The notes: generated from the sequence alone by a model not told the origin. 64,000 nucleotides of DNA from Patescibacteria group bacterium (GCA_004321885.1 SCQK01000013.1:32001-96000), one strand, 5' to 3'; positions 39,942-63,385 are shown, numbered from the stretch's first letter. Numbers and translations are program-made.

Positions 39942-41000
39942 CTATTTTTTCTTCAACGTCGTTATCGGCCTACTTTGAGTAATGTATACTGTACCGCTTT
40001 CCATGGCCCATTCAATATCACAAGGGAAACCATAGTGTTGCTCAATTTTCTTGCACACCTTGGCCACTTCAATAATTTCTTTGCCGGTCAGCTTCTGCTT
40101 ACCCCCCTCTTTCTCACTCAACTCAATCCATTTGTTGGAGTCTCTCCCCTTTATAAGGGGAGAGTTAGTGAGGGGTAATTTCGCTTTCACCAACTTCTTC
40201 GTCTGTACTCCAACATTTATATCTACAATACTCATTTCGCTTTTGGAAACAATATAACTGTCGGGTGTAATCTGGCCGCTCACAATCGCTTCGCCCAATC
40301 CAAACCCGGCCTCAATAATCATCTGGTCGGGGTCTTCAGTAACCGGGTGCACAGTAAAGGCGATGCCCGAAATTTCCGACTGCACCATTTTCTGCACCAC
40401 TACCGCGACCGAAACATAATGGTCAATCAGTTTTTTTTCGTGACGATAAAAAATCGCGCGGGGGGTGAAAAGCGAAGACCAGCATTGCTTAACTTTTTCA
40501 ACAACGTTAACGCGCGTGGTGTTCAAATAGGTTTCCAGCTCCCCGGCCCAACTGGCCACGTCGCTGTCCTCGGCCGTAGCGCTGCTTCTCACCGCCACCA
40601 GGTTGTCATCCTGAACTTGTTTCAGGATCCCCGTTCGCCGTCTGTCATTCAGACCCCGCTTAGCGGGGGAGGAATCCCTCCCGCCCAACTCATCAAACGC
40701 CCCCAATATCTCATTCTCCAAATCTTTCGGCATGGGCGTGTCGTGTATCACATCGCGCAAAACATTACTCGCCTTGTCCACGCTGTTGGTGTCTTCGGGA
40801 TCCACGTCAGCCAATCGCGCCTCAATCTCTTCTTTCAATTTCGTTTCCTCAATAAATCTGTCAAACGCGCTCGCCAATACCACAAAACCCGGCGGCACAC
40901 GCAGTTTCGCTTTAGTCATCTCGCCAAGCGAAGCGCCCTTCCCGCCCGCGCTGGCCACATCTTTCTTGGAAATATCCTTAAAAAATTTTATGTGAGGCAT
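39942..41000 (-). CDS. Stand-alone PEP-synthase/PPDK N-terminal ATP-grasp (nucleotide-binding) domain protein. Carries two in-frame palindromic insertions.
   Basis: VASAGGKGASLGEM...VAVRSSATAED...CDIEWAMESGTVYITQSRP is collinear with the N-domain of the ppsA at 53413..56379 and stops at the domain boundary. Insertions sit at 40143-40177 (family 2) and 40607-40632 (family 3). Confidence 0.8.
   Translation of the reverse strand: MPHIKFFKDISKKDVASAGGKGASLGEMTKAKLRVPPGFVVLASAFDRFIEETKLKEEIEARLADVDPEDTNSVDKASNVLRDVIHDTPMPKDLENEILGAFDELGGRDSSPAKRGLNDRRRTGILKQVQDDNLVAVRSSATAEDSDVASWAGELETYLNTTRVNVVEKVKQCWSSLFTPRAIFYRHEKKLIDHYVSVAVVVQKMVQSEISGIAFTVHPVTEDPDQMIIEAGFGLGEAIVSGQITPDSYIVSKSEMSIVDINVGVQTKKLVKAKLPLTNSPLIKGRDSNKWIELSEKEGGKQKLTGKEIIEVAKVCKKIEQHYGFPCDIEWAMESGTVYITQSRPITTLKKK
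40143..40177. repeat. Family-2 palindromic repeat (TCTCCCCTTTATAAGGGGAGAGTTAGTGAGGGGT), in-frame in the ATP-grasp ORF.
   Basis: Shared with 54371-54409; a variant sits at 27169-27220; a related core lies at 34730-34765. Confidence 0.8.
40607..40632. repeat. Family-3 palindromic repeat (CATCCTGAACTTGTTTCAGGATCCCC), in-frame in the ATP-grasp ORF.
   Basis: Identical to 62591-62616 and near-identical to 63041-63066. Confidence 0.85.
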
Positions 41001-41036
41001 ATTTCAAAAGCAGTCGCTTTGGGCGACTGCCACGAA

Positions 41037-41459
41037 CTATTTAATATATTCACCGATGATCTTCATAAACTTTTTTATATCTCCACTTTCCGCTTTTAGC
41101 TCGGTCAAAAATCGTTTCATGTCAATGTCTTCGTACTTGTGCACTATCCTGTTGCGCAAACCGACTATCGGAGCCAGTTTTAGAGCAAACGCCATGGGCA
41201 AAATTTTATTCTGGCCAAGCGTGATAAATGTGCTTTGATAATCTTCGGGCGCCTGCAAATTTTTCTCGGCGATAATATGCGTGTTGATATCTACCATACA
41301 GTCCACAATGAGCTGAAACAAGCGCTCAATCGCGTGCAATTTCGTCTCATCCTGAATTAAATCAAAAACATCGTCTTCTAAAAGCGCGTCCAACTCTTTC
41401 TGATACCCGCCGATGTCGGTGAGTTTGTTGTAAATAAGCGTTTTGTTGGTCATACACAC
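41037..41459 (-). CDS. HepT-like (DUF86) toxin, second copy.
   Basis: RNRIVHKY (Rx4HxY). Confidence 0.75.
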   Translation of the reverse strand: MCMTNKTLIYNKLTDIGGYQKELDALLEDDVFDLIQDETKLHAIERLFQLIVDCMVDINTHIIAEKNLQAPEDYQSTFITLGQNKILPMAFALKLAPIVGLRNRIVHKYEDIDMKRFLTELKAESGDIKKFMKIIGEYIK

Positions 41460-41462
41460 AAT

Positions 41463-41864
41463 TTAAGCCAAAAATTTTTGAAGTTGTTTATGCCTTAATT
41501 CATAAAGCGGTTTCGCCTCAACATATCTCTTAAACGCGTACATGCGAAATTTGGCAAACTCGCCGACTTTATCCTCGTATAGAGGAACTCCGTCTCGCCC
41601 TATTTGCAGCATAAGTAACGGCGACGCTCCGCGCGCGTTCACCACTTCCACGTCGCCGCGGCCAAATATATGGCAAAAATTTTCCCGCAACCCGGCTTCT
41701 TCATAATAAGAAATTGGCCCTTTTGTTTTGACGGCAATATCAATGTCGCTGTATTTATGCGTTTTTCCGCGCGCGGCCGAACCAAATAATACGACGAAAT
41801 CAAGACCAGCTTGTTTAGCCGCCTTTTTTATCGCTGTCTTTGTTGTTGAATTTATGACTTTCAT
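41463..41864 (-). CDS. MntA-like nucleotidyltransferase antitoxin, second copy.
   Basis: GSAARGKTHKYSDIDIAV. Confidence 0.8.
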   Translation of the reverse strand: MKVINSTTKTAIKKAAKQAGLDFVVLFGSAARGKTHKYSDIDIAVKTKGPISYYEEAGLRENFCHIFGRGDVEVVNARGASPLLMLQIGRDGVPLYEDKVGEFAKFRMYAFKRYVEAKPLYELRHKQLQKFLA

Positions 41865-41908
41865 GATAAAAGTATAGCATTTTTGCAGTATTTTGCAAAT
41901 TTTTGTCT

Positions 41909-42229
41909 TTAATCAATTTTTCTCACAATTCCCTTCTCCGCGTCCACCTCCACCATATCGCCATTTTTAATCTTCCACAAAATTTCTTCCGAAAGACCGA
42001 CAATCGCCGGTTTGTTATTTTCGCGCGCCACAATAGCCGCGTGAGAAGTTACCCCGCCATGCACTGCCAAAATCGCCTTCACTTTTTTAGCCAGCGCCGC
42101 GTTTGGTTTGACTTGATTCAATAACACAATATTCTCTTCCGTGCAATGAGCAAATTGGTCAGTATGATTAATAATACAAACCAGCCCGCTCGCCTTGCCG
42201 GGACAAGCAGAAATTCCTTTGAATTGCAT
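41909..42229 (-). CDS. Stand-alone PEP-utilizing-enzyme mobile (phosphohistidine swivel) domain protein.
   Basis: ACPGKASGLVCII...HGGVTSHAAIVARENNKPAIVG...GDMVEVDAEKGIVRKID; 106 aa. Confidence 0.8.
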   Translation of the reverse strand: MQFKGISACPGKASGLVCIINHTDQFAHCTEENIVLLNQVKPNAALAKKVKAILAVHGGVTSHAAIVARENNKPAIVGLSEEILWKIKNGDMVEVDAEKGIVRKID

Positions 42230-42492
42230 AAATTATAAATAATGGCTTTGTTCTGCCATTATTTTACTCTTACTCTTGACAAAAGTCAAAAAATGTGCTA
42301 TATTGTTTTGTTGTGGTTTATTGGAAAATTGCGCTTTATTGCGCTATTTTCCGGCTATAACGTGAGTGTGTTGTTTTTTGAAAATTTGAGGTTTCTTTGG
42401 CCAGAAGTTGAATGCGTAATGCGAATATCTTTTGTTCGTAATGCGCAGTCAACTTCCACGCCCCACCGATGGGGCACACCAAGGAGAGGAAG

Positions 42493-43140
42493 ATGAAGAC
42501 CACGGTGCTGTTCACGAGGCACGAGGACCACAAAGACCAGGTCCTCCTGCCGGACGCGGTCGAGAGAGCGCGCATGCGCGGTCTGCGCCTGCGTGAGAAG
42601 GACTACAAGATCGACCGGGTCAAGGGCTCGCCCCTGCCCCGCGCCGATGCCACCGCCACCGAGATGATGACCGGCTACGGCCAGACCACGGACATCGAGC
42701 GCGAGGCGCGCCTCGGCGACTTCAAATCCGATCCAAGGACGCCGAAGGAGGCGGTGAAGGAGCTCAAGGCGAACGCGGTGGCCAAGCACGGGGATGACTC
42801 CGACTCCAACTTGGCCAAGGAGCTCATCAACACCCCCGCCCTGCACGACCTCCTCTTCGCCCGCGCGAAGGAAGGCGCCGAGGCCCTGCTGGAGATGGCC
42901 GCCGCCAACCCGGGCAAGACCATCCTGGCCGTGAGCCACGGCGTGGCCCGCATGGAGATCGTCCTGCGCTACCTGCGGGGCGTCCGCGACACCGCGCTCC
43001 TGGACATCGTCCCGGAGCTCATCGACCGCGGCGAGGTCATCAAGCTGACCTTCGAGGTCTCGGAAGAGTGGGACGACCTCGCCGAGACGCACCCGGCGCG
43101 GGCCGAGTTCGTCTCGGCCGAGCCCCTCCCGCTCCTCTAA
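42493..43140 (+). CDS. Histidine phosphatase superfamily (PGAM/SixA-like) protein on a GC-rich foreign cassette.
   Basis: RHE and SHG motifs (VLFTRHEDH, AVSHGVA). Local GC is about 65% against about 40% in the flanks. RBS AAGGAGAGG lies just upstream. Confidence 0.65.
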   Translation: MKTTVLFTRHEDHKDQVLLPDAVERARMRGLRLREKDYKIDRVKGSPLPRADATATEMMTGYGQTTDIEREARLGDFKSDPRTPKEAVKELKANAVAKHGDDSDSNLAKELINTPALHDLLFARAKEGAEALLEMAAANPGKTILAVSHGVARMEIVLRYLRGVRDTALLDIVPELIDRGEVIKLTFEVSEEWDDLAETHPARAEFVSAEPLPLL

Positions 43141-43261
43141 CCCCCCATCTCGCCCGCGTTCCGCGGGCAACTCCAAACACAACTCACTGACACGGCGGTA
43201 CGCATCGCGCGACCGCCCAACTCTCAATGCTTTTCAACGAAAAACATTGAGCGTTACAAAA

Positions 43262-43293
43262 AATCCTTCGCGTTTACGAAGGATTTTTTGTTT
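43262..43293 (+). terminator. Rho-independent terminator after the histidine phosphatase (TCCTTCG-CGTTTA-CGAAGGA plus a T-run).
   Basis: Read directly. Confidence 0.55.
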
Positions 43294-43319
43294 CTCAATT
43301 TTAATACCAGCGCGCTATT

Positions 43320-44828
43320 TCAAATTCTCCTCACCACCCCTTTATACCCATCCACCTCCAACCAATCCCCATCTTTCACCACCTCGCGCACAAACCTGGT
43401 TTGTATTACTCCCGGAATTTTGGCTTCCCGCGCAAGCGTGGCCGGGTGCGTCGTAATACCATGCCCGCCATCGCAAACCAAACCTGCCGCTTTCATAATA
43501 GCTGTGGAGAAACTGGGTACCACTTGAATACTGACGATAATATCTCCCTTCTGCACTTTATCGCATTCATCGGGATGCAAAATTACACGCGCTGGCCCCT
43601 TGGCGACTCCGGGCGAAACCGGCATACCGGTAAACTCTTTAGCGTTCTTATCTACTTTACAGAAAAGATTAAACAATCTTTCGGCCTGACTTCTCTCAAC
43701 TATCTTCATTGGCTGTCCGCGCCGACAATACCACAACATCAGTTCTATCCTTTCGTTAATATCAAAAGATAATTCTTTTCCTTTGATCAAAGCCGTTCTT
43801 ATCTCTTCTATTTTTAAGTGCCTGACCTGATTCAGACTCAAATAGAATCTGCGGCCAATCTCTTTCAAAACGCTATCAAAATAATACAAAGATTCGGAAA
43901 CGTAGCGCTTGCGCAATTCTTTCAAGTAAGCCACATGGCGCATGGAATTGAAAGAATCTTGTTCTTGCTTGCTGAAGTTCAATCTGGCCAAATATCTCTT
44001 TCTTTCGCTTTCATTTTTAGCCAAGTTACCGACCAATTTCTCATATTCCTTCCTCACATTGAGTATGAGATAGCCGGTCAAACGTTGAACTATCGATCTA
44101 AAATCCAAAACGGAGTCTTCGTAATCACGCGTTACCCAAAAATAATTTCTTTCATGCTTCCTTATAAGATTACTAAGTTTAGAATCTTTTTTAATGGCGT
44201 CTATATCTTTGGTTGTGACCAGAGAAACCCAATGTTTATCGGCTAAAATCCTTAACGCCAATTCAAACAACGCCTTCAATTCAACAGTCGCCACCATGGC
44301 GCTGGGTTCGCGCGTTAAAATGTCCAAAACTACCGCGGCCTTCCTTTTGTCCGCCACTTTGCCTTCCACCATACGTAGCAGGTCGGCGATATAATGGTCT
44401 TCCGTAATCCAAATCCATCCGTACCGAGCGTACACCTCTTTGTATTTTTTTTCATAATCAGCGAAAAATTCGTACAATGTCTGATTGCTTATTCTTTCTA
44501 AATTAGAATTGCCTGCTTTCTTGGCAAAAGCCACTAAACGCGCACCGTAGATATGCTGTTCTTTAATGAACTTGCCGACCAATTTTGAATCATAATGAAT
44601 TTTATCGGACATGTCGCGAGCAACCTCTTCGTAACCCTTCCTACCAATAAACATGTAGTGTACGTTATGCGTGCAAAAATAAAGTACCTCTCCGAGGGCA
44701 AAGCCGACGGCACTTTTCATCTCATTGCAGACAGCCTCCATTGAAAAATAATTAGGAAACGGACTGACGCGTTGGCGTTGAGACTTAAATACCCAGTGGT
44801 CGATATCCGTTGAAAATTTAACTGGCAT
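43320..44828 (-). CDS. Two-domain protein: about 400-aa N-domain of unknown function plus a C-terminal PEP-utilizers swivel domain (paralog 1 of 4).
   Basis: C-terminus: GMPVSPGVAKGPARVIL...DGGHGITTHPATLAREAKIPGV...GDWLEVDGYKGVVRRI. Confidence 0.7.
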   Translation of the reverse strand: MPVKFSTDIDHWVFKSQRQRVSPFPNYFSMEAVCNEMKSAVGFALGEVLYFCTHNVHYMFIGRKGYEEVARDMSDKIHYDSKLVGKFIKEQHIYGARLVAFAKKAGNSNLERISNQTLYEFFADYEKKYKEVYARYGWIWITEDHYIADLLRMVEGKVADKRKAAVVLDILTREPSAMVATVELKALFELALRILADKHWVSLVTTKDIDAIKKDSKLSNLIRKHERNYFWVTRDYEDSVLDFRSIVQRLTGYLILNVRKEYEKLVGNLAKNESERKRYLARLNFSKQEQDSFNSMRHVAYLKELRKRYVSESLYYFDSVLKEIGRRFYLSLNQVRHLKIEEIRTALIKGKELSFDINERIELMLWYCRRGQPMKIVERSQAERLFNLFCKVDKNAKEFTGMPVSPGVAKGPARVILHPDECDKVQKGDIIVSIQVVPSFSTAIMKAAGLVCDGGHGITTHPATLAREAKIPGVIQTRFVREVVKDGDWLEVDGYKGVVRRI

Positions 44829-44858
44829 AATTAACTGATAAAAATTTATTCAATTCTT

Positions 44859-46082
44859 TTAAATTTTTCTCACAATCCCTTTCTCCGCGTCCACCTCCAC
44901 CATATCGCCGTCTTTTAAAACCTTAGTCGCGATTTTCGTGCCGATAATACAAGGTATACCTAACTCACGGCTGACGATGGCAGCATGCGCGGTTAACCCT
45001 CCCTCGTCGGTCACGATAGCGGCCGCCTTTTTGACCGCCGTTATCAACGACGGCGTGGTCATGGATGAAACTAAAATATCACCCTTCTGCATCTTGACCT
45101 GATCTTCCCGCGTGATAACAATTTTGACCTTGCCGCGCACCTTTCCCTTGGATGCCACGAAGCCAATAATTTTATCCACCACCGCTGTTTTGTCTTCTTC
45201 AAAATAAAGCTTAAAATAATTCTGCGCCTTTTCGCCGCTTAAAATTTTTAATTTTCTCCGGCTGATCAGCAATATATAAAATTGTTGGCGGCGTTTCATT
45301 TCGCTTTCGGGCATTTTCTTGCCACCCAAATAATCGCGCAAGCTGACCGGATCGTACCAATCCAATTCAGCCAATTCTTTTTCGTTGTTGATGACCTTTC
45401 GCAAATGATCTAATAGCTGATCGTAAAGATAAGACGACACTCTTTCCCCCATTTCGTAAAAGTAAGTGAACCATGATAAAATTTCCGCAAGCTCTTTTTC
45501 TTTGGCGGTTAATTTTAGCCGTCGTGCAAGATCCTCTCTTTTTCTAATCAATCGCGGACTAGAACAATGCAATTGGTTTAATAGCCCGACAACCGCTTTC
45601 GGCACTGATAAAGTTGATAAGACATCGTCCAGCTCGCGCGCCGATACTTTCGCCGCCAGTAATTTTTTCAGCCGCTGTGCAACAGACTGCTCACCCCAGT
45701 AGCTATAGACAATAGCGCCACGCCCATAAGCGTGATATTTCATGAACAAACTGATGTAACTCCTCAAATCTTTGCGGGTCAAATTTTTATTCTCGTACTT
45801 TCTGCCCCAGTTATAACCTTGGATTAGCAACTTAACTATAATGTCACCCAAACGAGAAATATTTTTCCCTTTAAATTCTCGCAGAATAATTTTCTGCTGT
45901 CTTTTTTTGTCCGCGGGGTCAAAGTATAACGAGGTAACTCTGCCGCGGCCGACAATCGGACTTCTGGCTATTTTCGCCCGCCCAAATTTACCAATGCTCT
46001 GCGCATAAGCAATGGTGCGAAATCCGCGATCAAGCAAAGTATTTTCACGTGTTAATTGTTTGACGTATTTGACTTTGGACAT
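44859..46082 (-). CDS. Unknown N-domain plus C-terminal PEP-utilizers swivel domain (paralog 2).
   Basis: C-terminus: KGKVRGKVKIV...DEGGLTAHAAIVSRELGIPCIIG...GDMVEVDAEKGIVRKI. Confidence 0.7.
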   Translation of the reverse strand: MSKVKYVKQLTRENTLLDRGFRTIAYAQSIGKFGRAKIARSPIVGRGRVTSLYFDPADKKRQQKIILREFKGKNISRLGDIIVKLLIQGYNWGRKYENKNLTRKDLRSYISLFMKYHAYGRGAIVYSYWGEQSVAQRLKKLLAAKVSARELDDVLSTLSVPKAVVGLLNQLHCSSPRLIRKREDLARRLKLTAKEKELAEILSWFTYFYEMGERVSSYLYDQLLDHLRKVINNEKELAELDWYDPVSLRDYLGGKKMPESEMKRRQQFYILLISRRKLKILSGEKAQNYFKLYFEEDKTAVVDKIIGFVASKGKVRGKVKIVITREDQVKMQKGDILVSSMTTPSLITAVKKAAAIVTDEGGLTAHAAIVSRELGIPCIIGTKIATKVLKDGDMVEVDAEKGIVRKI

Positions 46083-46239
46083 AAATTAAAGCTTCCCCAT
46101 AACCCCCTTTAATATAGAACCCCGAAATTTGACAAATAACGTGCACATGTTATACTGATTATGGAATTGATACCGCTTCAAATAGTCCCGTTTATCGGGG
46201 CGTCCCGCAAGGGTAAGGAGCGGTATTTTTGTTTTACTC

Positions 46240-46869
46240 CTATTTCGGCCATCTTTGCACCCAAATCTCTTTGTCTGCCACGTATTTATAATAATTCGTC
46301 CAATCCTTTTTATTTTGAACTTTTCTGCTGACAACGCCGGTGATGTAATCAGCTACCTGCAGCAAATTATTTGATTTTGAACGCTGTTGTTTTAATTTTT
46401 TTATAACTTTCTTCCCGTTCGTATTTAACCGAACGCGCAAATATTTGGCAAGACGGCTGCGAAAATCCGGCGAACCTGACTTATCAAGTATTACTGTGGC
46501 GTTATTCAAATGCGGAAGCGCGTTGTTAAAAACCATCTGGCAGGCGTATTTGTAAAACGATTCTTTGGTGATAAAACCTGGCCCCCACAATTTATTTGGG
46601 TCTTTGTCTATCACGACTGCGAAGTATATAAAGCGATACGGCTGGATGGCCGATAAAAATCTTTCTTTTATCTTATCCGAATTAAAAGAAAAATGAAATT
46701 CAAAATCGGACGGCAAATCAAGCTCTTTTCGCAATAAATTAATCCGTTGGTCGCAAGATAGGGCGTCTTCATTGTCATCAAAAATAACCAAAGAAATTAT
46801 AAAATATCTGCTGGAACCGGATTCTGTTTTACGGCCGGTATCGCCGGCTTCATCTATAAAGACGAGCAT
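46240..46869 (-). CDS. DUF3800-like protein.
   Basis: N-terminal FIDEAGDTG hallmark (an IDESG-type start); 209 aa. Embedded in the paralog operon. Confidence 0.5.
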   Translation of the reverse strand: MLVFIDEAGDTGRKTESGSSRYFIISLVIFDDNEDALSCDQRINLLRKELDLPSDFEFHFSFNSDKIKERFLSAIQPYRFIYFAVVIDKDPNKLWGPGFITKESFYKYACQMVFNNALPHLNNATVILDKSGSPDFRSRLAKYLRVRLNTNGKKVIKKLKQQRSKSNNLLQVADYITGVVSRKVQNKKDWTNYYKYVADKEIWVQRWPK

Positions 46870-46879
46870 AACTGTTAAT

Positions 46880-48361
46880 TCAAATTTTCTTCACAATCCC
46901 CTTTGTCGCATCCACTTCCACCATGTCGCCGTCTCTGAAAACCTTAGTGGCGATTTTCGTGCCAATCACGCAGGGAATACCGAGTTCGCGCGAGACGATA
47001 GCCGCATGGCAGACAATGCCGCCCATATCAGTAACTATCGCCGACGCCTTTTTCATGGCCGCCACGATTTCCGGTATGGTCATTTCCGAAACCAACACAT
47101 TTCCACTTACCATTTTTTTCATATCCTCTATGGTATTTACAATCGTTACTTTCCCTTTGGCCGCGCCCGGAACCGCGGTTTGCCCCCGCAGTTCTTGAAC
47201 TGATAAATCCACTTCTTCCTCACGAGCCATATTCATTTTTGACATTACGTATCTCGCTTCTTCGCCAACAATAAACTTGGATCCATTGGCGTCCACATAT
47301 AGTAAACTATATTTCCAACGTTCATTTAATTCATCCGCGTCGCACTGCCCGCTTCTAATCGCAGAAGGAACTTCTTGTGGCAAAAAATATCGCGCTTGAC
47401 GAATTGAAATAAGCAATCTTTTTGCTACTTCCCGCAGTATTTTATCAAGCGCATAAAATCCTAAAAATTGGTGCTCTTTGCTCCATGCCTTTTGATAAAC
47501 AAGGTCTTTGGTAACGCGAAATAAATGCTTGTGTTTTTCATCAATTTTTAAATTATCAAACCAGGCGTTTTGTTTTTTTTCAGCTTCAAAAAACTGATTT
47601 TTCTGACGCAAAATTTCTTGCTCAATATCGGTCCCAGCTTCTATAATCTCCTGAATATGCTTTACCACATCCTTCTCTGTCCAAGTCGGCCCTTCACAGG
47701 CAAAGGGCAAAAAACAATACTTCCGCGCATGCGCCGCAATTTTTTCCTCCCCAACGGATAATTGAATTTTGCCTTCCACAACTTCCTTCGCCAGCTCATA
47801 AAGTTCCAAATGTTCCTGTGTACCCAAAGCCGGCTTTGTCAGCGTGAGTAAATCAGCCAAAACAAGAACGGCATCTATATCAGGATTAAACTTTTTTAAA
47901 TAGTTCAATAAATATATTCCTAATTGTTCAAACGGAATTTCCAAAAGCCAACTCGGAACACGATATAAGTGTAATTCCGTCTGTAACGGCAACAGTTGTT
48001 CGTAAATTCGCGCGAGTTCTTCGTTGGATAACTTTGATAAATCACTCTCAATAATTTTCCAGGCATAATTTCTAAGCTGCGGTAAAATTTTATCTGATTT
48101 TACATGCATATCATCAATGAGCCGGGGATTTTCCACAATTGCTTCTAAAGTTTTTTTACCGGCCACTATCCATTCATTGCGAATATAGAATAACTTTGTC
48201 GCGCCGTTTTCATACAAAGGAAGGCTGTGTGCCACATCGGCAAGCCCCAGCTTGCTCAATTCGCTTGTCATGGCGCGAAAAGGCGGCTCCAATGTAATGG
48301 GAGGATACTGATACAACTTCTCAATCATTATCCATTCTTTTCTTAACAATTCTTCATTCAT
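46880..48361 (-). CDS. Unknown N-domain plus C-terminal PEP-utilizers swivel domain (paralog 3).
   Basis: C-terminus: AVPGAAKGKVTIV...DMGGIVCHAAIVSRELGIPCVIG...GDMVEVDATKGIVKKI. Confidence 0.7.
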   Translation of the reverse strand: MNEELLRKEWIMIEKLYQYPPITLEPPFRAMTSELSKLGLADVAHSLPLYENGATKLFYIRNEWIVAGKKTLEAIVENPRLIDDMHVKSDKILPQLRNYAWKIIESDLSKLSNEELARIYEQLLPLQTELHLYRVPSWLLEIPFEQLGIYLLNYLKKFNPDIDAVLVLADLLTLTKPALGTQEHLELYELAKEVVEGKIQLSVGEEKIAAHARKYCFLPFACEGPTWTEKDVVKHIQEIIEAGTDIEQEILRQKNQFFEAEKKQNAWFDNLKIDEKHKHLFRVTKDLVYQKAWSKEHQFLGFYALDKILREVAKRLLISIRQARYFLPQEVPSAIRSGQCDADELNERWKYSLLYVDANGSKFIVGEEARYVMSKMNMAREEEVDLSVQELRGQTAVPGAAKGKVTIVNTIEDMKKMVSGNVLVSEMTIPEIVAAMKKASAIVTDMGGIVCHAAIVSRELGIPCVIGTKIATKVFRDGDMVEVDATKGIVKKI

Positions 48362-52929: not shown

Positions 52930-52984
52930 GGGTCGGTAGTTCAACTGGTTAGAGCATCCCGACTGAGTCGGGAAAGTTGCGGGT
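52930..52984 (+). pseudogene. tRNA-like 5' fragment, from acceptor to the 5' side of the T-stem. Its body is identical to tRNA-Asp, but the anticodon arm is TCCCG-ACTGAGT-CGGGA.
   Basis: GGGTCGGTAGTTCAACTGGTTAGAGCA is shared with tRNA-Asp. No T-loop or 3' acceptor follows it. The anticodon arm resembles the family-1 palindrome core. Confidence 0.55.
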
Positions 52985-53245
52985 ATGGAGGTAATTTTAT
53001 ATTATATTTACAGTAAAAAACTGAATAAATACTACTTAGGAAAAACCAATGATTTGGAGCGACGTTTTATAGAGCATAATAACGGTGAAGAAATTTTTAC
53101 CAGAACTGGTATTCCATGGAAATTAGTTGGATTTATTAAAGCCAGCGCGAAGATAATTAGTAAATTAGAGTATAAACTAAAAAAAGCAAAAAATCCAAAA
53201 TACGTTTATTGGTATTTCAATCAACACGGAACTGTATTGGAATAA
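52985..53245 (+). CDS. Small GIY-YIG nuclease-domain protein (YhbQ/UPF0213-like).
   Basis: ILYYIYSKK...YYLGKTNDLERRFIEHNNG covers the GIY, YIG, Arg, Glu and Asn positions; 86 aa. Confidence 0.6.
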   Translation: MEVILYYIYSKKLNKYYLGKTNDLERRFIEHNNGEEIFTRTGIPWKLVGFIKASAKIISKLEYKLKKAKNPKYVYWYFNQHGTVLE

Positions 53246-53250
53246 TGAGC

Positions 53251-53324
53251 GGGTCGGTAGTTCAACTGGTTAGAGCACTGCCCTGTCACGGCAGAAGTTG
53301 CGGGTTCGAGTCCCGTCCGACCCG
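53251..53324 (+). tRNA. tRNA-Asp (anticodon GTC).
   Basis: Hand-folded cloverleaf. Acceptor GGGTCGG/CCGACCC, U8, D-arm, anticodon stem CTGCC/GGCAG with loop CTGTCAC, T-loop TTCGAGT, discriminator G. No encoded CCA. Confidence 0.85.
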
Positions 53325-53346
53325 CTTATTATTCCATCAAAGCAAG

Positions 53347-53405
53347 CTGGTTAGAGCATCCCGACTGAGTCGGGAAAGTTGCGGGTTCGAGTCCCGTCCG
53401 ACCCG
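53347..53405 (+). pseudogene. tRNA-like 3' fragment, from D-loop to the 3' acceptor. It complements the 5' fragment at 52930-52984 and has the same variant anticodon arm.
   Basis: CTGGTTAGAGCATCCCGACTGAGTCGGGAAAGTTGCGGGTTCGAGTCCCGTCCGACCCG. The 5' acceptor strand is missing. Confidence 0.55.
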
Positions 53406-53412
53406 CATAAAA

Positions 53413-56379
53413 CTATTTAACCGAGAACAAAGTAAACCAGCCGAGCATCTCGTCAAAGGTTTTTTTGTCGCCAGAAATTTCTATGATGTTTTTGGATTTT
53501 TTGAAACCTTGGGGATAAAGCTCCATTAATTTTGTGCCGTCGGCGCGAGTATAAATTTTGGCCGGAATATTTTGCCATACAGTTGTGGTAGACGAACCGG
53601 ACAGAGAACCCCCGGTCGCCTCAGGCGACCTCGGGATGACAGCTGAGGCTATTATAAACCGGCTTAACTTATCGGCCGACTGAAAACGCACCACCTTGTC
53701 CCCGTGCTCCACTGTCCAGGCCGCCGGATATTGCAAAGTAAACCGCGCGAAAGAATCCTCGCTGTACAAACTCTTGGGCTGTTCGCTTTCCCGCTTGCGA
53801 ATCTCGGCCGCCAGCTGTTCCAGCTGCGTTTTCAATTTTCCGGTTTCTTCCACGATGGCTTTTTTCACGTTTTCGTTCACAATCTGATTATTGGGCTGGC
53901 AGGCGTAGCCGCCCAGCGTGGAAAGCAAACCCACCACGCCAAAAATCAACAACAATTTCGTAGCCGCCGCTATTTTTATAATGGCGCCTTTTTTGGCCGA
54001 AACTTTTTTCTCCAGCCCGGCCACCCGCTCGCGCGCCTTTAGCACCGTGTCCGGATTAAGCGAAATGCTGTCTATCCCCTCTTGCACCAAAAAATCGGCG
54101 AACTCGGGATAGTCAGAGGGCGCCTGACCGCAGATGCCCACCTTGCGTCCATACTTGTGCGCCGTGGAAATCACCTGTCGTATCAAAGTTTTTACGGCCT
54201 CGTTTCTTTCATCATACACATGGCTCACCAAAGCGCTGTCGCGATCAACACCTAGGGTCAACTGGGTTAAATCGTTGGAGCCGATGCTAAAGCCGTCAAA
54301 AATCTGGCTGTACTCTTTGGCCAAAATCACGTTGGAAGGAATCTCGCACATCACGTAAACTTTCAAGCCAGACCCCTCACTAACTCTCCCCTTATAAAGG
54401 GGGGAGGAGCTTCCTCGCTCCAATCCGAATTCTTTCATCACAGCCAGCACCTTTTTTCCCTCGGCCACGGTGCGGCAAAACGGCACCATCACGATTATAT
54501 TTTTCAGCCCCCACTCTTCACGCGCCATTTTCAATGCCGCGCATTCCAGCCTAAAACCGGGCTTGTAGGCCGGGTCATAATAGCGCGAAGCCCCGCGCCA
54601 GCCCAGCATGGGGTTTTCTTCTTTGGGCTCGTACAAATGCCCGCCGATAAGCGTGGCGTATTCATTGGTTTTGAAATCAGACAAGCGCACAATAACATCG
54701 CGCGGATAATACGCGGCCGCGATAAAAGCGATGCCCTCGGCCAGCTTGTCCACGCAGTACCGGGCCTTGTCTTTGTAGCCGATGGTCAGCTCGTCAATTT
54801 TGGCTTTCAATTCCCGGTCCGCCAATTTTTTGTAATTTACCAAAGCGAGCGGATGGATTTTTATAAAATTGGTGAAAATAAATTCCTCGCGCGCCAGGCC
54901 CACGCCGTCACTGGGGATATGCGACAAAGCAAAAGCGCTGCCCGGGTCGCCCACGTTCATCATTATTTTGGTGCGGGTTTTGGCAATGGCTTTTATTTCC
55001 TGTTTTTCTATTTCAAAAGGCAGGCGCCCTTTGTACACATAACCGGCCTCGCCCTCGGCGCAGGAAACAGTCACTTCCTGCCCGGGCTTCACAATCTGAC
55101 GCGCCCTGGCCGCGCCCACCAGGCACGGCGTGCCCAGCTCGCGGCTGACAATAGCCGCGTGCGAGGTCTTTCCCCCCTGCTCCGTGACAATGGCCGAGGC
55201 AATGCGCATTATCGGCTCCCAATCCGGGTCCGTAATGCGCGTAATCAAAACTTCGCCTGGCCGAAAGCTCTTCATCTGCCTGGGCGAGTTTATTACCCGC
55301 GCTTTGCCCTGACCGATTTTTTGCCCGATGCTGATTCCCTCCACCAAAACTTTGCCTTTTTGTTTCAAATGGTACTGCTCTATTACATTTATATTGTCGC
55401 GCGAACGCACTGTTTCGCTGCGCGCCTGCACGATATAGAGTTTTCCGCTCCGTCCGTCTTTGGCCCACTCTATATCCATGGGCCGCTGGTAATGCTCTTC
55501 TATTTGCATGCCCCACTTGGCCAGTTGCAAGACTTCGTCCGGGGAAACGCAGAACCGGTGCTGGTCCGGCATTTTTACTGTTTCCTGCCTGGTGCCTGTT
55601 TTTCCGTAAACAAGTTTTACTTCTTTGCTCCCCAGCCGCTTGCTGATGATTGATTTCAATCCGCGCCGAACCCCATCTTTGAAAACAAAAAACTGGTCCG
55701 GTATCACCCGGCCCTTGACCACATATTCGCCCAAGCCATAAGCCGCGTTTATAAGCACCACGCCCTTAAAACCCGACTCGGTGTCCAGAGTGAACATCAC
55801 GCCGCTGGCGCCCAAATCCGAACGCACCATTTCCTGCACGCAAACCGAAAGCGCCACAGCCGCGTGGTCAAAGCCCTTGTCCACGCGATAGGAAATGGCG
55901 CGGTCCGTAAAAAGAGAAGCAATACATTTCTGGCAGGCTAAAATAAGTTCATCGGCGCCGACGACATTCAAATAGGTTTCCTGCTGGCCGGCAAAACTGG
56001 CGTCGGGCAAATCCTCGGCCGTGGCCGACGAACGCACGGCCACTGAACTCTTGCCCAATTCTTTATACGCCGCTTTCAATTCATCTGCTATTATTCCTGG
56101 AAACTCGGCGCTTAAAACCATCTGGCGAATCTTGGCGCCGGCCGCGGCCAGCGATTTCACGTTTTTGCCGTCGGTCTTGTTTAGAATTTCTTTTATTTTT
56201 TTATCCAATTTGTCCTCACGCAAAAAAAGCCGGTAGGCGTCGGCAGTAAGAGCGAACCCGTTTGGCACGGCCACTCCATTGGCAGTCAAATTATTATACA
56301 TCTCGCCCAGCGACGCGGTCTTGCCGCCCACGCTGGGAATGTCTTTGATGCCGAGTTCCTTAAACCAGCGGATATACAT
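53413..56379 (-). CDS. ppsA: Phosphoenolpyruvate synthase (pyruvate, water dikinase), full length, with an extra C-terminal extension of about 190 aa that contains a TM helix.
   Basis: ATP-grasp N-domain, swivel (QGGKTSHAAIVSRELGTPC) and PEP-binding TIM barrel (GFSIGSNDLTQL...GICGQAPSDYPEF). A family-2 insertion sits at 54371-54409. The C-terminal tail reads IIKIAAATKLLLIFGVVGLLSTLGGYAC and so on. Confidence 0.9.
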   Translation of the reverse strand: MYIRWFKELGIKDIPSVGGKTASLGEMYNNLTANGVAVPNGFALTADAYRLFLREDKLDKKIKEILNKTDGKNVKSLAAAGAKIRQMVLSAEFPGIIADELKAAYKELGKSSVAVRSSATAEDLPDASFAGQQETYLNVVGADELILACQKCIASLFTDRAISYRVDKGFDHAAVALSVCVQEMVRSDLGASGVMFTLDTESGFKGVVLINAAYGLGEYVVKGRVIPDQFFVFKDGVRRGLKSIISKRLGSKEVKLVYGKTGTRQETVKMPDQHRFCVSPDEVLQLAKWGMQIEEHYQRPMDIEWAKDGRSGKLYIVQARSETVRSRDNINVIEQYHLKQKGKVLVEGISIGQKIGQGKARVINSPRQMKSFRPGEVLITRITDPDWEPIMRIASAIVTEQGGKTSHAAIVSRELGTPCLVGAARARQIVKPGQEVTVSCAEGEAGYVYKGRLPFEIEKQEIKAIAKTRTKIMMNVGDPGSAFALSHIPSDGVGLAREEFIFTNFIKIHPLALVNYKKLADRELKAKIDELTIGYKDKARYCVDKLAEGIAFIAAAYYPRDVIVRLSDFKTNEYATLIGGHLYEPKEENPMLGWRGASRYYDPAYKPGFRLECAALKMAREEWGLKNIIVMVPFCRTVAEGKKVLAVMKEFGLERGSSSPLYKGRVSEGSGLKVYVMCEIPSNVILAKEYSQIFDGFSIGSNDLTQLTLGVDRDSALVSHVYDERNEAVKTLIRQVISTAHKYGRKVGICGQAPSDYPEFADFLVQEGIDSISLNPDTVLKARERVAGLEKKVSAKKGAIIKIAAATKLLLIFGVVGLLSTLGGYACQPNNQIVNENVKKAIVEETGKLKTQLEQLAAEIRKRESEQPKSLYSEDSFARFTLQYPAAWTVEHGDKVVRFQSADKLSRFIIASAVIPRSPEATGGSLSGSSTTTVWQNIPAKIYTRADGTKLMELYPQGFKKSKNIIEISGDKKTFDEMLGWFTLFSVK
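54371..54409. repeat. Family-2 palindromic repeat, in-frame in ppsA (encodes SSPLYKGRVSEGSG).
   Basis: The reverse complement matches 40143-40177. Confidence 0.8.
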
Positions 56380-56419: not shown

Positions 56420-59279
<2,860 letters not shown>

Positions 59280-59389: not shown

Positions 59390-59827
59390 CTAATCAGCAA
59401 TGCCTGACTGCGATAATGTTACTGTGCCGCTCATGCCGTTCATATTGCCTTCCAGAGTGGCAACCACGCTGTAACTGCTTGAGGCCGTGCTGGTGTAAAC
59501 ATAGTTCTGCCCGGCTTTCGGATCTTTTGGCACAACCGCCATGTATGGGTCGGCACAGCCAGTGGCGGCGAATCCGGCGGAAGATAAACAGACATAGCTG
59601 CCTCCGGTAACGCCCAGGTTCTGGCCAGTGGCCGCGGCCGGATAACCGCTGTTATCGGTGTAGTACAACTCCAGCGCGGTTTGAATCTGTTTAAGGTCGG
59701 ACAAGCGCTTGGAATCGCGCGCTTTTGTTCTGGCGTTTCCCAAAGCGACCACTGCCAAAGTGGACAACAAACCGATGATGGCTACCACGACCAATAACTC
59801 AATCAAAGTAAAACCTTTCTTATTCAT
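59390..59827 (-). CDS. Type IV pilin (prepilin-type N-terminal methylation domain).
   Basis: MNKKGFTLIELLVVVAIIGLL class III signal. Confidence 0.85.
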   Translation of the reverse strand: MNKKGFTLIELLVVVAIIGLLSTLAVVALGNARTKARDSKRLSDLKQIQTALELYYTDNSGYPAAATGQNLGVTGGSYVCLSSAGFAATGCADPYMAVVPKDPKAGQNYVYTSTASSSYSVVATLEGNMNGMSGTVTLSQSGIAD

Positions 59828-59871
59828 AAATTCACCCCCTCTCTATGCGTAAAGTTTCTTGACATATCGTA

Positions 59872-60306
59872 TTAATCTTGTATGCCCCCGGGAACCAAAG
59901 TTATCCCGCCGCTTAATCCTTCCATGGTCCCTTCCAAATTGGCGGTGACGGAATAAGTGCTCGAGGCCGCGTTGTAAGTATAAACATAAACCCCGGAATT
60001 TTTGGGGTCTGTGGGCACCCGGCCCATCAGCGCGTTGGCGCATCCAACAGCCGCAAAGCCGGAAGCGTTCAAACAGGCGTAATTGGTTCCTCCGAGAGCA
60101 GCGCTCGCGCCGGCCGGATAGCTATTGTTCTCGTCCTGGTAAAGCTCCAGCGCGGTTTGAATCTGTTTAAGGTCAGACAGACGTTTGCCATCGCGCGCTT
60201 TTATGCGCGCGCCGTTTAGGGCCACCACCGCCAAAGTCGCAAGCAGGCCGATAATGGCGACAACGACCAATAACTCAATCAGTGAAAAACCCTTGCTCTG
60301 TTTCAT
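59872..60306 (-). CDS. Type IV pilin, paralog.
   Basis: MKQSKGFSLIELLVVVAIIGLL. The N-terminal 60 aa are nearly identical to the neighbouring pilin. Confidence 0.85.
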   Translation of the reverse strand: MKQSKGFSLIELLVVVAIIGLLATLAVVALNGARIKARDGKRLSDLKQIQTALELYQDENNSYPAGASAALGGTNYACLNASGFAAVGCANALMGRVPTDPKNSGVYVYTYNAASSTYSVTANLEGTMEGLSGGITLVPGGIQD

Positions 60307-60310
60307 ACCA

Positions 60311-60703: not shown

Positions 60704-60745
60704 ATTTTTAATTATACGATTTGAAATTTGCGACTAACGCGTTCA

Positions 60746-61903
60746 TTATACCATATTTCTCAACGCGAGGCCAATAGCCACGGACATGCGCGGCCCGATG
60801 TCTTGCAAAATCGGCCGCAAGCTGTCTTGGTGCACCACTCGCGCCCACGGGTCCCCCACATAGCATTTTGTCTTGAACTTGTCCGCGATGATTTTAGCCA
60901 GATAGGGCAAACCAGCCATGCCGCCCGTCAGAATAATTTTTTCCGGACGCTTGTTTTCATTGCCGGTCTGGCGCAAATATAATTCAAAGCTCACTTCTAC
61001 TTCTTTTATTATCGGTTCAATGACCGCGCCGAACATTTCCAAAAGTTTGGCTGATAAATTCACGCCGCTGCGCGGCTGGGAAACAAAATCAAACAAGTCG
61101 CGCTTAATCTGCTCGGTACCGCCCTCGTCTATCCCCAGCGCGTTGCGCAAAATTTTGTCTATTTTCACTCCGCCCGCGTCTATGGTCTGGTGCGTTACCG
61201 GATAAGCCGAGTCAACGATAAAAAAATTGGTGCGCTCGGCCCCGATGTCTATCAGCATGCAAACGGCCTGGTCCCGCCAAACCAGCGAACGGGTGAGCGC
61301 GGCCGACTCGGGTTCCAGCGCCGATAGCGCGATGCCCGCCTTTTGAAAAACTCTGGTGTAAAAGCTGATAAGCTGGTGCGGCACCGCGTTGATGAGCACG
61401 CGCTGAATTTTCTGCTCTTCGTCCGCGGAGATTATTTCGTGCTCAATAGCCACTTCTTCCAGCGGAATGGGCACGAATTTTTTTATCTCGGCGCGTAAAA
61501 TGCGGTCCAGCTCTTCTTTTTTCACCAAAGGCAAAGTGACCACCGCGTGAAAGACCGATGAAACCGGCAGGCTGACCACCGCGCTTTTGGAAACCACGCG
61601 GCTGGCCCGGCACACGGCCGCGATTTTGGCCGCGTATTCTTTTATTTTTTCTTCGCTGAAATTTTCGGCCTTGGCCGCCGTGGCTTCGGCGGAAGCCACA
61701 CCCGCCTCGGCTCCGATTTTCTTTTTCAGCAATTCACTCACCGCGTCTTCTTTGGCCGTGCTTATCTGGTGCACGTCTTGCGACTGCGAAGTCAGGCCAT
61801 AGGTAAAAAGCACCGGCCTTTTTTTCTCCTGGCGCAATTCCGCTAACTTAATGCCGCCCGCTCCGATGTCTATGCCTAAAAACGATTTCGGCTTGAAGAA
61901 AAA
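60746..61903 (-). CDS. pilM: Type IV pilus assembly protein PilM (actin-like ATPase fold).
   Basis: LGIDIGAGGIKLAEL N-terminus and overall PilM-like sequence. Confidence 0.75.
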   Translation of the reverse strand, partial: FFFKPKSFLGIDIGAGGIKLAELRQEKKRPVLFTYGLTSQSQDVHQISTAKEDAVSELLKKKIGAEAGVASAEATAAKAENFSEEKIKEYAAKIAAVCRASRVVSKSAVVSLPVSSVFHAVVTLPLVKKEELDRILRAEIKKFVPIPLEEVAIEHEIISADEEQKIQRVLINAVPHQLISFYTRVFQKAGIALSALEPESAALTRSLVWRDQAVCMLIDIGAERTNFFIVDSAYPVTHQTIDAGGVKIDKILRNALGIDEGGTEQIKRDLFDFVSQPRSGVNLSAKLLEMFGAVIEPIIKEVEVSFELYLRQTGNENKRPEKIILTGGMAGLPYLAKIIADKFKTKCYVGDPWARVVHQDSLRPILQDIGPRMSVAIGLALRNMV

Positions 61904-61990
61904 CATACGGTAATAGTATAGCACATTTTTCCGCTGTTCGTAAGAAGGCCTGTTGATAAGTGGGCGCGAATAGAGTAAAATAAAAGCACT

Positions 61991-63385
61991 ATGCTACAAC
62001 TTTTCAATACCCTGATCAGAAAAACAGAAGAATTCGTCCCGCTCAAAAAAGGCCGCGCAGGCCTCTACACCTGCGGCCCCACTGTCTACAACTACGCGCA
62101 CATCGGCAATTTGCGCGCTTATGTTTTTGAAGATGTGCTCAAGCGAGTTTTGCTCTACGACAAATACAAGGTGAAGCACGTGATGAATATCACCGACGTT
62201 GGGCATTTGACCGATGACGGCGACGCGGGCGAAGACAAGATGGAAAAAGGGGCGCGACGCGAGGGCAAGACCGCCTGGGAAATCGCGAAATTTTACGAAA
62301 ATGCTTTTAAGAACGACTTGAAAAATTTGAACATTTTGCCGGCCGACAAATATCCGCGCGCCACCGAGCACATCAAAAACCAAATCGCTTTGATAAAAAA
62401 ATTAGAGGCGAAAGGATTTACTTACCGCACGAGCGATGGCGTGTATTTTGACACTTCAAAGTTGTCGGATTACGGCAAGCTGGCGCTTTTGGGCAAACAG
62501 GAATTGATGGCCGGAGCGCGGGTGGAGATGGGAGAAAAAAAACACGCGACTGATTTCGCGCTGTGGAAGTTGAGCGCCTCGCAGGGCGGTCATCCTGAAC
62601 TTGTTTCAGGATCCCCAAAACGCCAAATGGAATGGCCTTCGCCCTGGGGCATCGGTTTTCCTGGCTGGCATATAGAGTGCTCGGCCATGTCAGTAAAATA
62701 TTTGGGCCAGCCGTTTGATATCCACTGCGGCGGAGTTGACCATATTCCGGTGCATCACACCAACGAAATAGCGCAAAGCGAAGCGGCCGGCGGCAAACCC
62801 CTGGCGAATTATTGGTTGCACGGAGAGTTTTTGATAACCGGTACGGAAAAAATGGCCAAATCGGAAAACAACTTTTTGACTTTGGCGAAATTGAAAGAAA
62901 AAGGCATCTCTCCCCTGGCCTATCGTTATTTCCTGTTGCAGACGCATTACCGCAAACAACTGAACTTTTCCTGGGAGGCGCTCTCCGCCGCGCAAAAGGG
63001 CTTGGAGCATTTGTATGACTTAATCCCTGTGTCCAATAGTCATCCTGAACTTGTTTCAGGATCTCCGCTCGCTCAACGATTCCAAGAAGCCATCAACAAC
63101 GACCTGGACACTCCGGCCGCTCTGGCTCTGGTCTGGGATGCCCTGCGCGCCAAAACAATTTCCAAAAAACAACTTTTGGATTTTGACAAGGTTCTCGGTC
63201 TTGGTCTGAACAAAGTGAAAAAAGAAAAAATCAAAATCCCGGCCGAAGTTCAGAAGCTGATCAAGGAGCGCGAAACCGCCCGCACGGCCAAGAACTGGGC
63301 CGAATCCGACCGTTTGCGCCGTGAAATAGAGGCCGCCGGTTTTACGGTTGAAGACACGCCGGATGGGCAGAAGGTGAGGAAATAA
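61991..63385 (+). CDS. cysS: Cysteinyl-tRNA synthetase with two in-frame family-3 palindromic insertions.
   Basis: [17 protein letters not shown] (HIGH) and KMAKSENN (KMSKS). The insertions, at 62591-62616 and 63041-63066, each encode HPELVSGSP. Confidence 0.9.
62591..62616. repeat. Family-3 palindromic repeat, in-frame in cysS.
   Basis: CATCCTGAACTTGTTTCAGGATCCCC; the hairpin is ATCCTGAA-cttgt-TTCAGGAT. Confidence 0.85.
63041..63066. repeat. Family-3 palindromic repeat, second cysS copy.
   Basis: CATCCTGAACTTGTTTCAGGATCTCC. Confidence 0.85.

Follow-up and report, generated by a model that had tools for sequence, protein, structure and literature searches.

Repetitive extragenic palindromes (REPs) tagged by CGTC were defined by Di Nocera, De Gregorio and Rocco in 2013 (BMC Genomics 14:522; PMC3733652) as elements with a tag (CGTC, TGTC or CCTC), a stem of 8-9 bp beginning with AT, a loop of 4-5 nt and a short tail with the consensus CCA. 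Within this class, CGTC-1 is the dRS3 repeat of Neisseria, and the Rickettsia palindromic elements (RPE) RPE-6 and RPE-4 correspond to CGTC-1 and CGTC-4 (PMC3733652). The class was known from five phyla, Patescibacteria not among them; most copies were intergenic, and in-frame intragenic copies were described in tRNA synthetases, DNA ligase and genes of replication and repair, sometimes twice per gene (PMC3733652). No dedicated transposase was found for CGTC REPs, and they were never seen flanking genes for REP-associated tyrosine transposases (RAYTs) (PMC3733652). Here we describe hairpins of this kind in a stretch of 64,000 nucleotides from a Patescibacteria group bacterium with a tiny genome, close to Magasanikbacteria (GCA_004321885.1, SCQK01000013.1:32001-96000), which as a whole is called the window. 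Its element of interest, named family 3, is a palindrome present in three copies, two in cysS, the gene for cysteinyl-tRNA synthetase (CysRS), and one in a gene for a stand-alone PPDK_N protein.

In 2025, Chenal et al. (Nat Commun 16:2388; PMC11893778) described the Neisseria NTS, CGTCATTCCCGCGMAVGCGGGAATCYRG, which includes the dRS3 repeat, follows the frame CGTCAT-TCCCGC-GMAV-GCGGGA-ATCY and has a variant, CGTCATACTCGGG-N5-CCCGAGTATC. SsnA, a 94-aa single-domain GIY-YIG nuclease (CDD cd10448), binds and cuts the NTS and a degenerate Ssn-related motif (SRM) only as single-stranded DNA (ssDNA) and on one strand only; the published SRM pattern is HGTCWYN(0-2)YYVSBRHN(0-5)WNVSBRGN(0-2)RNCYNB (PMC11893778). 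Cleavage takes place a few nucleotides upstream of the palindrome and is controlled by the three bases that precede the palindrome on its 5' side, and the base that matters most for binding is the C that directly follows the palindrome (PMC11893778). The ssn genes are usually flanked by their own motifs, and in Neisseria, where alone a role in transformation has been shown, the NTS and SsnA act on transforming DNA (PMC11893778). Patescibacteria are unmentioned in that study (PMC11893778). Of the two studies on these widespread CGTC REPs and SRMs, one found no transposase (PMC3733652), and the other showed cutting by a nuclease next to them, not the way in which they move (PMC11893778). Our best overall explanation of the window, to which we give a probability of about 0.7, is that it holds CGTC-REP/SRM hairpins that act as ssDNA and are lodged in tolerant loops of housekeeping genes.

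Three family-3 copies in two host genes

The two host genes, the three copies and an antisense open reading frame (ORF) are located as follows.

39942..41000, - strand: stand-alone PPDK_N gene (phosphoenolpyruvate (PEP)/pyruvate-binding, ATP-grasp), 352 aa (PF01326, E=2.8e-94)
61991..63385, + strand: cysS, cysteine--tRNA ligase, 464 aa (PF01406, E=7e-93)
40605..40632, + strand: copy 1, GTCATCCTGAACTTGTTTCAGGATCCCC, reversed in the PPDK_N gene, read GILKQVQDD
62589..62616, + strand: copy 2, cysS site 1, aa 200-208, GHPELVSGS, in the loop after the DFALWK strand
63039..63066, + strand: copy 3, with one mismatch (..GGATCTCC), cysS site 2, aa 350-358, SHPELVSGS
62418..62618, - strand: spurious antisense ORF, 66 aa, with its TTG start inside copy 2 and wholly within cysS

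The 26-mer CATCCTGAACTTGTTTCAGGATCCCC was matched at 40607-40632 (0 mismatches), 62591-62616 (0) and 63041-63066 (1), all on the + strand, and not once in 100 dinucleotide-preserving shuffles, which confirms the three near-identical palindromes reported in an earlier note on this DNA. Written short, the element is (GT)CATCCTGAACTTGTTTCAGGATC. Since GT lies directly 5' of all three 26-mer copies, the repeat unit is GTC-ATCCTGAA-cttgt-TTCAGGAT-C, with the layout GTC, an 8-bp stem beginning with AT, a 5-nt loop and C; as ssDNA it is predicted to fold into a hairpin with an 8-bp stem and a 5-nt loop. The 5' tags of the copies are TGTC, GGTC and AGTC, and in the 3' tail the first base, C, is kept while the rest reads CCC or TCC here and mostly T in copies elsewhere. 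Three of the six reading frames of the element are stop-free, and the two used here are, as read from the sequence, among those three. The peptides, HPELVSGS twice in cysS and GILKQVQDD from the reversed copy at aa 124-132 of the PPDK_N protein, are thus predicted translations of a dispersed palindromic element read through in frame, as the earlier note had held; so, too, is its view of ORF 62418..62618 as a by-product of the element borne out by the position of that ORF. Both cysS copies recur in L001, a Logan assembly made independently that covers the same gene, and are therefore no assembly artefact. At gathering thresholds, Rfam found tRNA-Asp only in the whole window and no known RNA family at the hairpin elements.

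Because this layout agrees feature by feature with that of the published class, family 3 is very probably a member of the CGTC-tagged REPs, or hairpins of the NTS/SRM type; it is set in that class by layout and is not placed in one of the four CGTC families. Within the 64-kb window it is a short palindromic stem-loop in multiple dispersed copies, with the tag and with the stem and loop (ATCCTGAA/TTCAGGAT, loop CTTGT) of a CGTC REP, and GTC stands directly 5' and C directly 3' of the palindrome, as in an SRM. In other class members of the window the 3' end is CCAG. The copies also have the marks of RPEs, being in-frame palindromes in coding genes that are extra relative to orthologues and sit in permissive loops, at a size far below that of RPE-1. 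Neither feature of the GTAG REPs with their RAYTs was found: the element lacks a GTAG tag, and a Pfam scan of 24 window ORFs gave no Y1 transposase domain.

The earlier note had proposed structural mapping as a check. The AlphaFold model of the window CysRS has a mean predicted local distance difference test (pLDDT) score of 87.4, with dips to 56 at residues 201-210 and to 68 at residues 351-360, and both inserts fall between secondary-structure elements, site 2 lying in the linker between helices 328-343 and 359-369. In the model, then, the CysRS inserts occupy low-confidence surface loops.

Other hairpins of the class in the window

Class members were defined by the tagged pattern GTCAT[TC][CA]..GGA(A)TC[CT], which gave 13 matches in the 64 kb against 0.32 in shuffles. 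A generic scan for GTC, a hairpin and C (15 matches vs 10.6 in shuffles) was too permissive to be used in its place; one further element came from it, for a total of 14. Besides the three family-3 copies, these are as follows.

910..942, + strand: 5' edge of greA, whose true start probably lies downstream
20951-20978, - strand: N-terminus of D-Ala-D-Ala carboxypeptidase
23980-24026, 35407-35436 and 36921-36947: intergenic
25483..25508, + strand: GTCATTCCGGCcttgtGCCGGAATCC, with the cttgt loop of family 3, in priA, aa 484-492
38029..38062, + strand: TGTCATTCCCCCGACTAAGTACGGGGGAATCCAG, in alaS, aa 381-391, LDSPVLSRGND
40644..40677, + strand: GTCATTCAGACCCCGCTTAGCGGGGGAGGAATCC, 13 nt from copy 1, read RDSSPAKRGLND in the same PPDK_N loop
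49225..49252, - strand: TGTCATTCCCGCGAAAGCGGGAATCCAG, the exact Neisseria NTS/dRS3 core, read VIPAKAGIQ in a PEP-utilizers paralogue
51309-51342, - strand: near-identical copy of the alaS element, in mnmA, aa 288-298
57935..57982, - strand: class member(s) in ligA, aa 165-180

The ends of these hairpins are common to all, and the inner stem and loop differ. Nine are clearly intragenic, in the housekeeping genes priA, alaS, the PPDK_N gene (two), the PEP-utilizers paralogue, mnmA, ligA and cysS (two); two are at doubtful N-termini (greA and the carboxypeptidase gene) and three are intergenic. They are read in differing frames and orientations, as VIPAKAGIQ, LDSPVLSRGND, LSFPRLSTGES and others, and as these peptides are unrelated, the constraint is on the DNA and not on the peptide. 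The published SRM pattern matches five window elements other than family 3, including the exact NTS core at 49225-49252, against 0.2 expected.

Another hairpin family, unrelated to these (CTCTCCCCTT-tat-AAGGGGAGAG with its relatives), was seen at 40142-40164, 51449-51471, 27178-27210, 28607-28629 and 17853-17875. Its copy at 40142-40164 is read ...SPLIKGR... inside the same PPDK_N gene, and 'P..KGG/RGG' peptides of this family fill the CysRS and PPDK_N insertion sites described below in many orthologues, including 26 of the 56 PPDK_N inserts.

Insertion hot spots in orthologous proteins

The window proteins were compared with their orthologues, in sets of 120 Patescibacteria CysRS and 120 PPDK_N sequences that count the window's own (orthologues carry P numbers and nucleotide loci L numbers). 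Site 1 of CysRS aligns to a gap in solved CysRS structures. A bare FSPxGxK loop is found there in 88/120 orthologues, among them the closest, P0002 (77-79% identity), and inserts of the types HPE..GS, VIP..EESL..GMT and P..GG in the other 32, the window's included. Site 2, a variable linker, is likewise a hot spot, with SFPRKRES..DSRFRGND in P0072 and VIPxxxEESL or PPLSKGRLGG in others. In the PPDK_N protein, the loop is 3-4 aa long when uninserted and consists of a bare 'GAE' in 64/120 orthologues, the remaining 56 (again with the window's) carrying assorted hairpin peptides such as LDSRLRGND, KKILKPVQDD and SPLIKGE.... As aligned, the CysRS and PPDK_N loops are recurrent hot spots with turnover of hairpin variants.

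These comparisons bear on several claims of the earlier note. That the peptides are extra relative to most orthologues is upheld by the bare loops in 88 CysRS and 64 PPDK_N proteins. That each cysS copy adds HPELVSGSP is right as to extra sequence and inexact as to amount: site 1 has gained ~10 codons relative to the closest orthologue, and P0002 has a different hairpin, GTCATTCCGACC...GGAATCC, at site 2 exactly at the position of the window's family-3 copy, so that the net gain of the window there is only ~3 codons. The single insertion described for the PPDK_N gene is present and reversed, but it is one half of a tandem pair with 40644-40677 that adds ~25 aa to the loop. Lastly, the presence of the peptide in other CysRS proteins had been named as what would speak against an insertion; P0003 does carry it literally, but not in the sense intended, as the peptide is not ancestral to CysRS.

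Two further elements were noticed near cysS in relatives. P0002 cysS has another CGTC element near its N-terminus (L003 1123-1148, codons ~13-21), and in L006 a head-to-head dimer of the exact NTS core (1914-1938, + strand, and 1962-1986, - strand) lies just upstream of cysS.

Age and inheritance of the site-1 cassette

HPE..GS cassettes occur at site 1 in eight orthologues, the window's CysRS (P0001) included. One of them, P0003 (73-75% identity), has the identical hairpin. The cysS genes of the window and P0003 are 67.7% identical in nucleotides and 42.9% in third positions, and the seven hairpin codons are identical at 21/21 positions, which points to either strong constraint at the DNA level or renewal. 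The carriers share only 64-72% identity with one another and lie dispersed among relatives without an insert; P0044 has 87% identity to P0084 and 85% to P0014, P0082 83% to P0117, and P0035 80% to P0031.

The site-1 DNA was read for seven of the eight alleles, P0103 being left out. All seven encode Leu-Ser by TTG AGY in the place of TTT TCN in uninserted alleles, and all have a small upstream hairpin in common; the tag is CTCAT in six and GTCAT in the window copy. None is a clean insert, ~19 nt being replaced by ~49-61 nt. The main hairpin varies discretely between alleles (CCTGAA/TTCAGG vs CCCGAC/GTCGGG, for example), and copies 1 and 3 have unrelated flanks. The shared codons, tag and cassette form suggest that site 1 is an old, patchily inherited cassette with hairpin turnover. 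To judge from these alleles, the patchiness looks like the result of recombination between lineages or of repeated replacement, and not like two fresh insertions. The earlier argument that two independent insertions into one gene speak for active spread is therefore oversimplified, since the site-1 insert looks like an old cassette, also found in P0003, and site 2 is a hot spot at which the closest relative has a different element.

Distribution across phyla and nuclease context

The exact 24-mer TCATCCTGAACTTGTTTCAGGATC was found in at least 120 stretches of species-representative genomes, from many classes of Patescibacteria, Bacteroidota, Alphaproteobacteria (Sphingomonadales, Rickettsiales), Gammaproteobacteria, Treponema, Heliobacteriaceae, Melainabacteria, Elusimicrobia, Dependentiae, Balneolaceae, Sulfurovaceae and others, at least ten phyla in all. 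Family 3 is thus not a family of this genome's own, as the earlier note had treated it, and belongs to a published class. In the flanks of 133 copies elsewhere, position -1 is G in 97%, -2 is C or T in 91% and +1 is T or C in 97%, so that the unit can be written YGTCAT-CCTGAA-cttgt-TTCAGG-ATCY, in the same frame as the NTS. Beyond YG, no conserved leader was found upstream of the 24-mer among the 133 copies, which marks the leader shared at cysS site 1 as site-specific. Only 19 of the 133 copies, and one of 13 Patescibacteria loci, lie inside long ORFs, and the coding location of all three copies in the window is therefore unusual.

In L078, a gammaproteobacterial metagenome-assembled genome, inward-facing hairpins stand on both sides of a gene for a 101-aa single-domain GIY-YIG protein (PF01541, E=3e-16), and one of them is an exact family-3 hairpin 14 nt from the gene. 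L110 has a similar GIY-YIG gene 1.5 kb from a copy of the 24-mer. Both proteins are called 'Ssn-type' here by Pfam PF01541 and context. The odds that family-3 hairpins are linked to an Ssn-type nuclease seem to us about even.

A GIY-YIG gene between tRNA duplicates

Only one nuclease candidate was found among the 24 window ORFs scanned, and its module has relatives elsewhere.

52985..53245, + strand: 86-aa single-domain GIY-YIG gene (PF01541, E=1e-9)
L131 2440-2840, L132/L133 2380-3000, L134 370-751 and L135 40-422: module relatives

In the module at 52930-53406, the initial 55 nt of a modified tRNA-Asp-like copy come first; next are the GIY-YIG ORF and an intact tRNA-Asp(GTC), and the 3' part of the modified copy is last. 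In that modified copy the 17-nt anticodon stem-loop is swapped for the hairpin ATCCCGAC-tga-GTCGGGA, directly after which the ORF begins, and the 3' part makes a 40-nt exact direct repeat, so that identical 40-nt repeats, each with the hairpin, flank the gene. ARAGORN and Rfam call only the intact tRNA. The same module was found in five metagenomic relatives, in one of them on tRNA-Pro. The window has five occurrences of the core CCCGAC-N3-5-GTCGGG (0.01 expected), one of them inside a CGTC element, and the core is also present in the site-1 hairpin of P0004. Hairpins with this core and without GTC/ATC tags stand at 32675-32699 and 13782-13800; the former lies after rpsI, is followed on the gene strand by a run of T and resembles an intrinsic terminator.

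The gene may be regarded as a candidate partner of the hairpins, its link to family 3 being inferred from this context; that its product is the nuclease acting on family-3 hairpins is doubtful. Still more speculative, and in our view improbable, is the idea that a small GIY-YIG nuclease drives a homing-like writing and overwriting of hairpins at fixed sites in this Patescibacteria lineage. If it were true, the replacements in tRNA, CysRS and PPDK_N genes would be the work of a single gene-conversion system, templated by hairpins and editing coding and tRNA genes alike, and such conversion would supply the missing mobilisation mechanism of CGTC REPs and SRMs.

Proposed mechanism and alternative explanations

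Under our preferred explanation, the family-3 element would act as ssDNA, folding when a strand is exposed in replication or after DNA uptake. A small GIY-YIG nuclease of the Ssn type would bind the hairpin and cut a few nucleotides upstream, and repair or recombination at the breaks would copy hairpins to new places and swap variants at occupied ones. To survive within a gene, a copy would need a length that is a multiple of three, a stop-free frame (three of six) and a peptide that falls in a tolerant surface loop, and selection for such copies would produce hot spots. Tolerant loops would be a main refuge in this gene-dense genome, and the ribosome would simply read through.

Several observations weigh against this explanation. 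The substitution form of site 1, with its shared codons and CTCAT tag, looks like allelic inheritance or recombination and not like transposition. In other genomes the 24-mer lies mostly outside long ORFs, as it does in 12 of the 13 Patescibacteria loci, so the notion that a compact genome forces insertion into coding sequence is not general. None of the three family-3 copies matches the published SRM pattern, for which reason family 3 is filed by its layout and the L078 context and not by that pattern. A GIY-YIG gene of the kind in L078 and L110 lies within 8 kb in only two of 120 hairpin loci, as is expected for random copies, and this is no proof of a link. No Ssn-type gene with the C-terminal half GFTKKY...REKQ.K, as in L078 and L110, was found in the 64 kb; the window GIY-YIG protein shares 43% identity with that of L078 over the N-terminal 44 aa, with the C-terminal half unaligned, and is of a subtype that differs from the Ssn type, and the hairpins that flank its gene have no GTC/ATC tags. 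Hairpin orientation in the window relative to GC skew is 9:4, which is not significant. Moreover, what has been demonstrated for Ssn is cleavage of ssDNA and an influence on transformation, not the moving or copying of hairpins (PMC11893778).

The first of these points is also the ground for the most serious alternative, in which the inserts spread as alleles by homologous recombination after DNA uptake among Patescibacteria, with no de novo insertion, the hairpin part being homogenised by gene conversion against other genomic copies. We consider this possible but distinctly less probable. It accounts well for TTG AGY and the upstream mini-hairpin in 7/7 site-1 alleles read, for CTCAT in 6/7, and for substitutions of ~19 nt by ~49-61 nt in place of clean inserts, and it agrees with the scatter of carriers beside uninserted orthologues at 80-87% identity, although the neighbour-joining tree is a rough guide only. 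The position of cysS beside type IV pilus genes (pilM, pilins) fits as well, as the NTS and SsnA act on transforming DNA in Neisseria. What it leaves unexplained is the same 24-mer at unrelated sites with unrelated flanks (PPDK_N, cysS site 2) and at 120 or more loci in many phyla. Allelic spread and a nuclease-driven mechanism are complementary and not mutually exclusive. Classical REPs moved by a RAYT (IS200/IS605) or another transposase encoded elsewhere in the genome seem very unlikely. RAYTs that act on hairpins of ssDNA are the presumed mobilisers of REPs of about this size, and Di Nocera et al. allow for the borrowing of such enzymes by CGTC REPs (PMC3733652). However, the tag is GTC and not GTAG, CGTC REPs were never found flanking RAYT genes (PMC3733652), and the one gene seen flanked by a family-3 hairpin encodes a GIY-YIG protein (L078). 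Pfam scans of 24 window ORFs revealed no Y1/HUH or other transposase domain, the remaining ORFs being judged from N-terminal sequences only, and the sole recombinase found in the window is a Xer-type integrase at 9089..10042. Least probable of all, and by a wide distance from plausible, are ordinary lineage-specific loop extensions, or inserts selected for a benefit of the peptide or mRNA hairpin to the host protein, in place of selfish or nuclease-linked DNA. The inserts do lie in loops and are kept in frame, and some hairpins of related sequence look like terminators, as at 32675-32699 after rpsI, but the same DNA gives HPELVSGS in one gene and ILKQVQDD in another, its third codon positions are frozen between the window and P0003, most copies of the identical 24-mer in other phyla lie between genes, and orthologues have unrelated hairpin peptides or none at the same loop.

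Neighbouring genes

Directly upstream of cysS are two tandem paralogous type IV pilin (N_methyl) genes (59390-60306, ~80% identical over 100 nt) together with pilM, a response regulator and a prepilin peptidase, a neighbourhood kept in L005 and L006. The PPDK_N gene belongs to a split PEP-synthase-like cluster (39942-49836 and 53413-56379) that comprises the stand-alone PPDK_N, a 106-aa mobile-domain protein and four proteins of ~400-500 aa, each of which ends in a PEP-utilizers mobile domain (repeat D1, five copies). Interspersed among these genes are HepT/MntA-like toxin-antitoxin pairs together with a DUF3800 gene and one for a histidine phosphatase, and a complete 988-aa PEP synthase is encoded nearby. 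On the - strand at 52260-52560, a tandem 101-nt repeat (52279-52379/52441-52541, 73% identical) appears to encode two CxxC zinc-ribbon units that resemble ORF 19719..20228; the + strand ORF called there is probably spurious. At ~8-10 kb (window 8000-10100), beside the Xer-type tyrosine recombinase gene (9089..10042), GC skew flips from + to - and gene orientation also switches, and this may be a replication terminus.

Implications

The CGTC-REP/SRM class is present in Patescibacteria, a phylum without an earlier report, and was missed by both previous studies because they used cultured or RefSeq genomes. In-frame REPs, including those in tRNA synthetases and double inserts, are already published, and in this respect the locus is a new example. 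What is new is that one variant is identical across phyla, that most copies here lie in coding sequence, and that hairpin variants turn over at recurrent hot spots. The family-3 variant is the same to the letter in at least ten phyla and borders a gene of the Ssn type, which widens the known range of Ssn-site specificity, and hundreds of metagenomic orthologues with hot spots and variant turnover amount to a natural experiment on target choice and replacement. For annotation, these hairpins inflate and fragment gene calls, create spurious antisense ORFs and 'hypothetical proteins', and add low-complexity loops to essential enzymes; they deserve to be recognised in annotation and in structure prediction. 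The leads most worth following are the GIY-YIG/tRNA module and the idea of hairpin swapping.

Comparison with known systems

Compared with GTAG REPs and their RAYTs (REPtrons, bacterial interspersed mosaic elements), the hairpins of the window have in common that they are short, ssDNA-acting elements that would be tied to a flanked 'domesticated' enzyme gene; they differ in that neither the GTAG tag nor the HUH tyrosine transposase was found here. The resemblance to RPEs, which are translated, lies in palindromes placed in frame in essential genes at surface-exposed positions. The RPE host, however, is an obligate intracellular alphaproteobacterium, and RPE-1, which Ogata et al. reportedly described in 2000 and 2002 as 100-150 bp long and encoding 30-50 aa, is far longer than family 3. 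For RPEs we know of no description of recurrent hot spots with variant turnover across orthologues.

As for NTS and SRM, family 3 lies outside the published SRM pattern and no Ssn-type gene was identified in the window, yet the frame YGTCAT-stem-loop-stem-ATCY is shared, the exact NTS core occurs in the window, the distribution extends across phyla with enrichment in symbionts, and in L078 a family-3 hairpin flanks a ~100-aa single-domain GIY-YIG gene, in the manner of NTS-ssnA-NTS. From the published CGTC REPs the window differs in its share of clearly intragenic copies (9/14 vs mostly intergenic) and in the family-3 tail, CCC or CTC rather than the consensus CCA. It resembles them in the unpaired (C/T)GTC tag, the 8-bp stem starting with AT, the 5-nt loop and the tail beginning with C; in the several sub-families per genome and the head-to-head dimers (here upstream of cysS in L006); in the lack of RAYT association; and in the in-frame copies within tRNA synthetases, DNA ligase and genes of replication and repair, double inserts among them.

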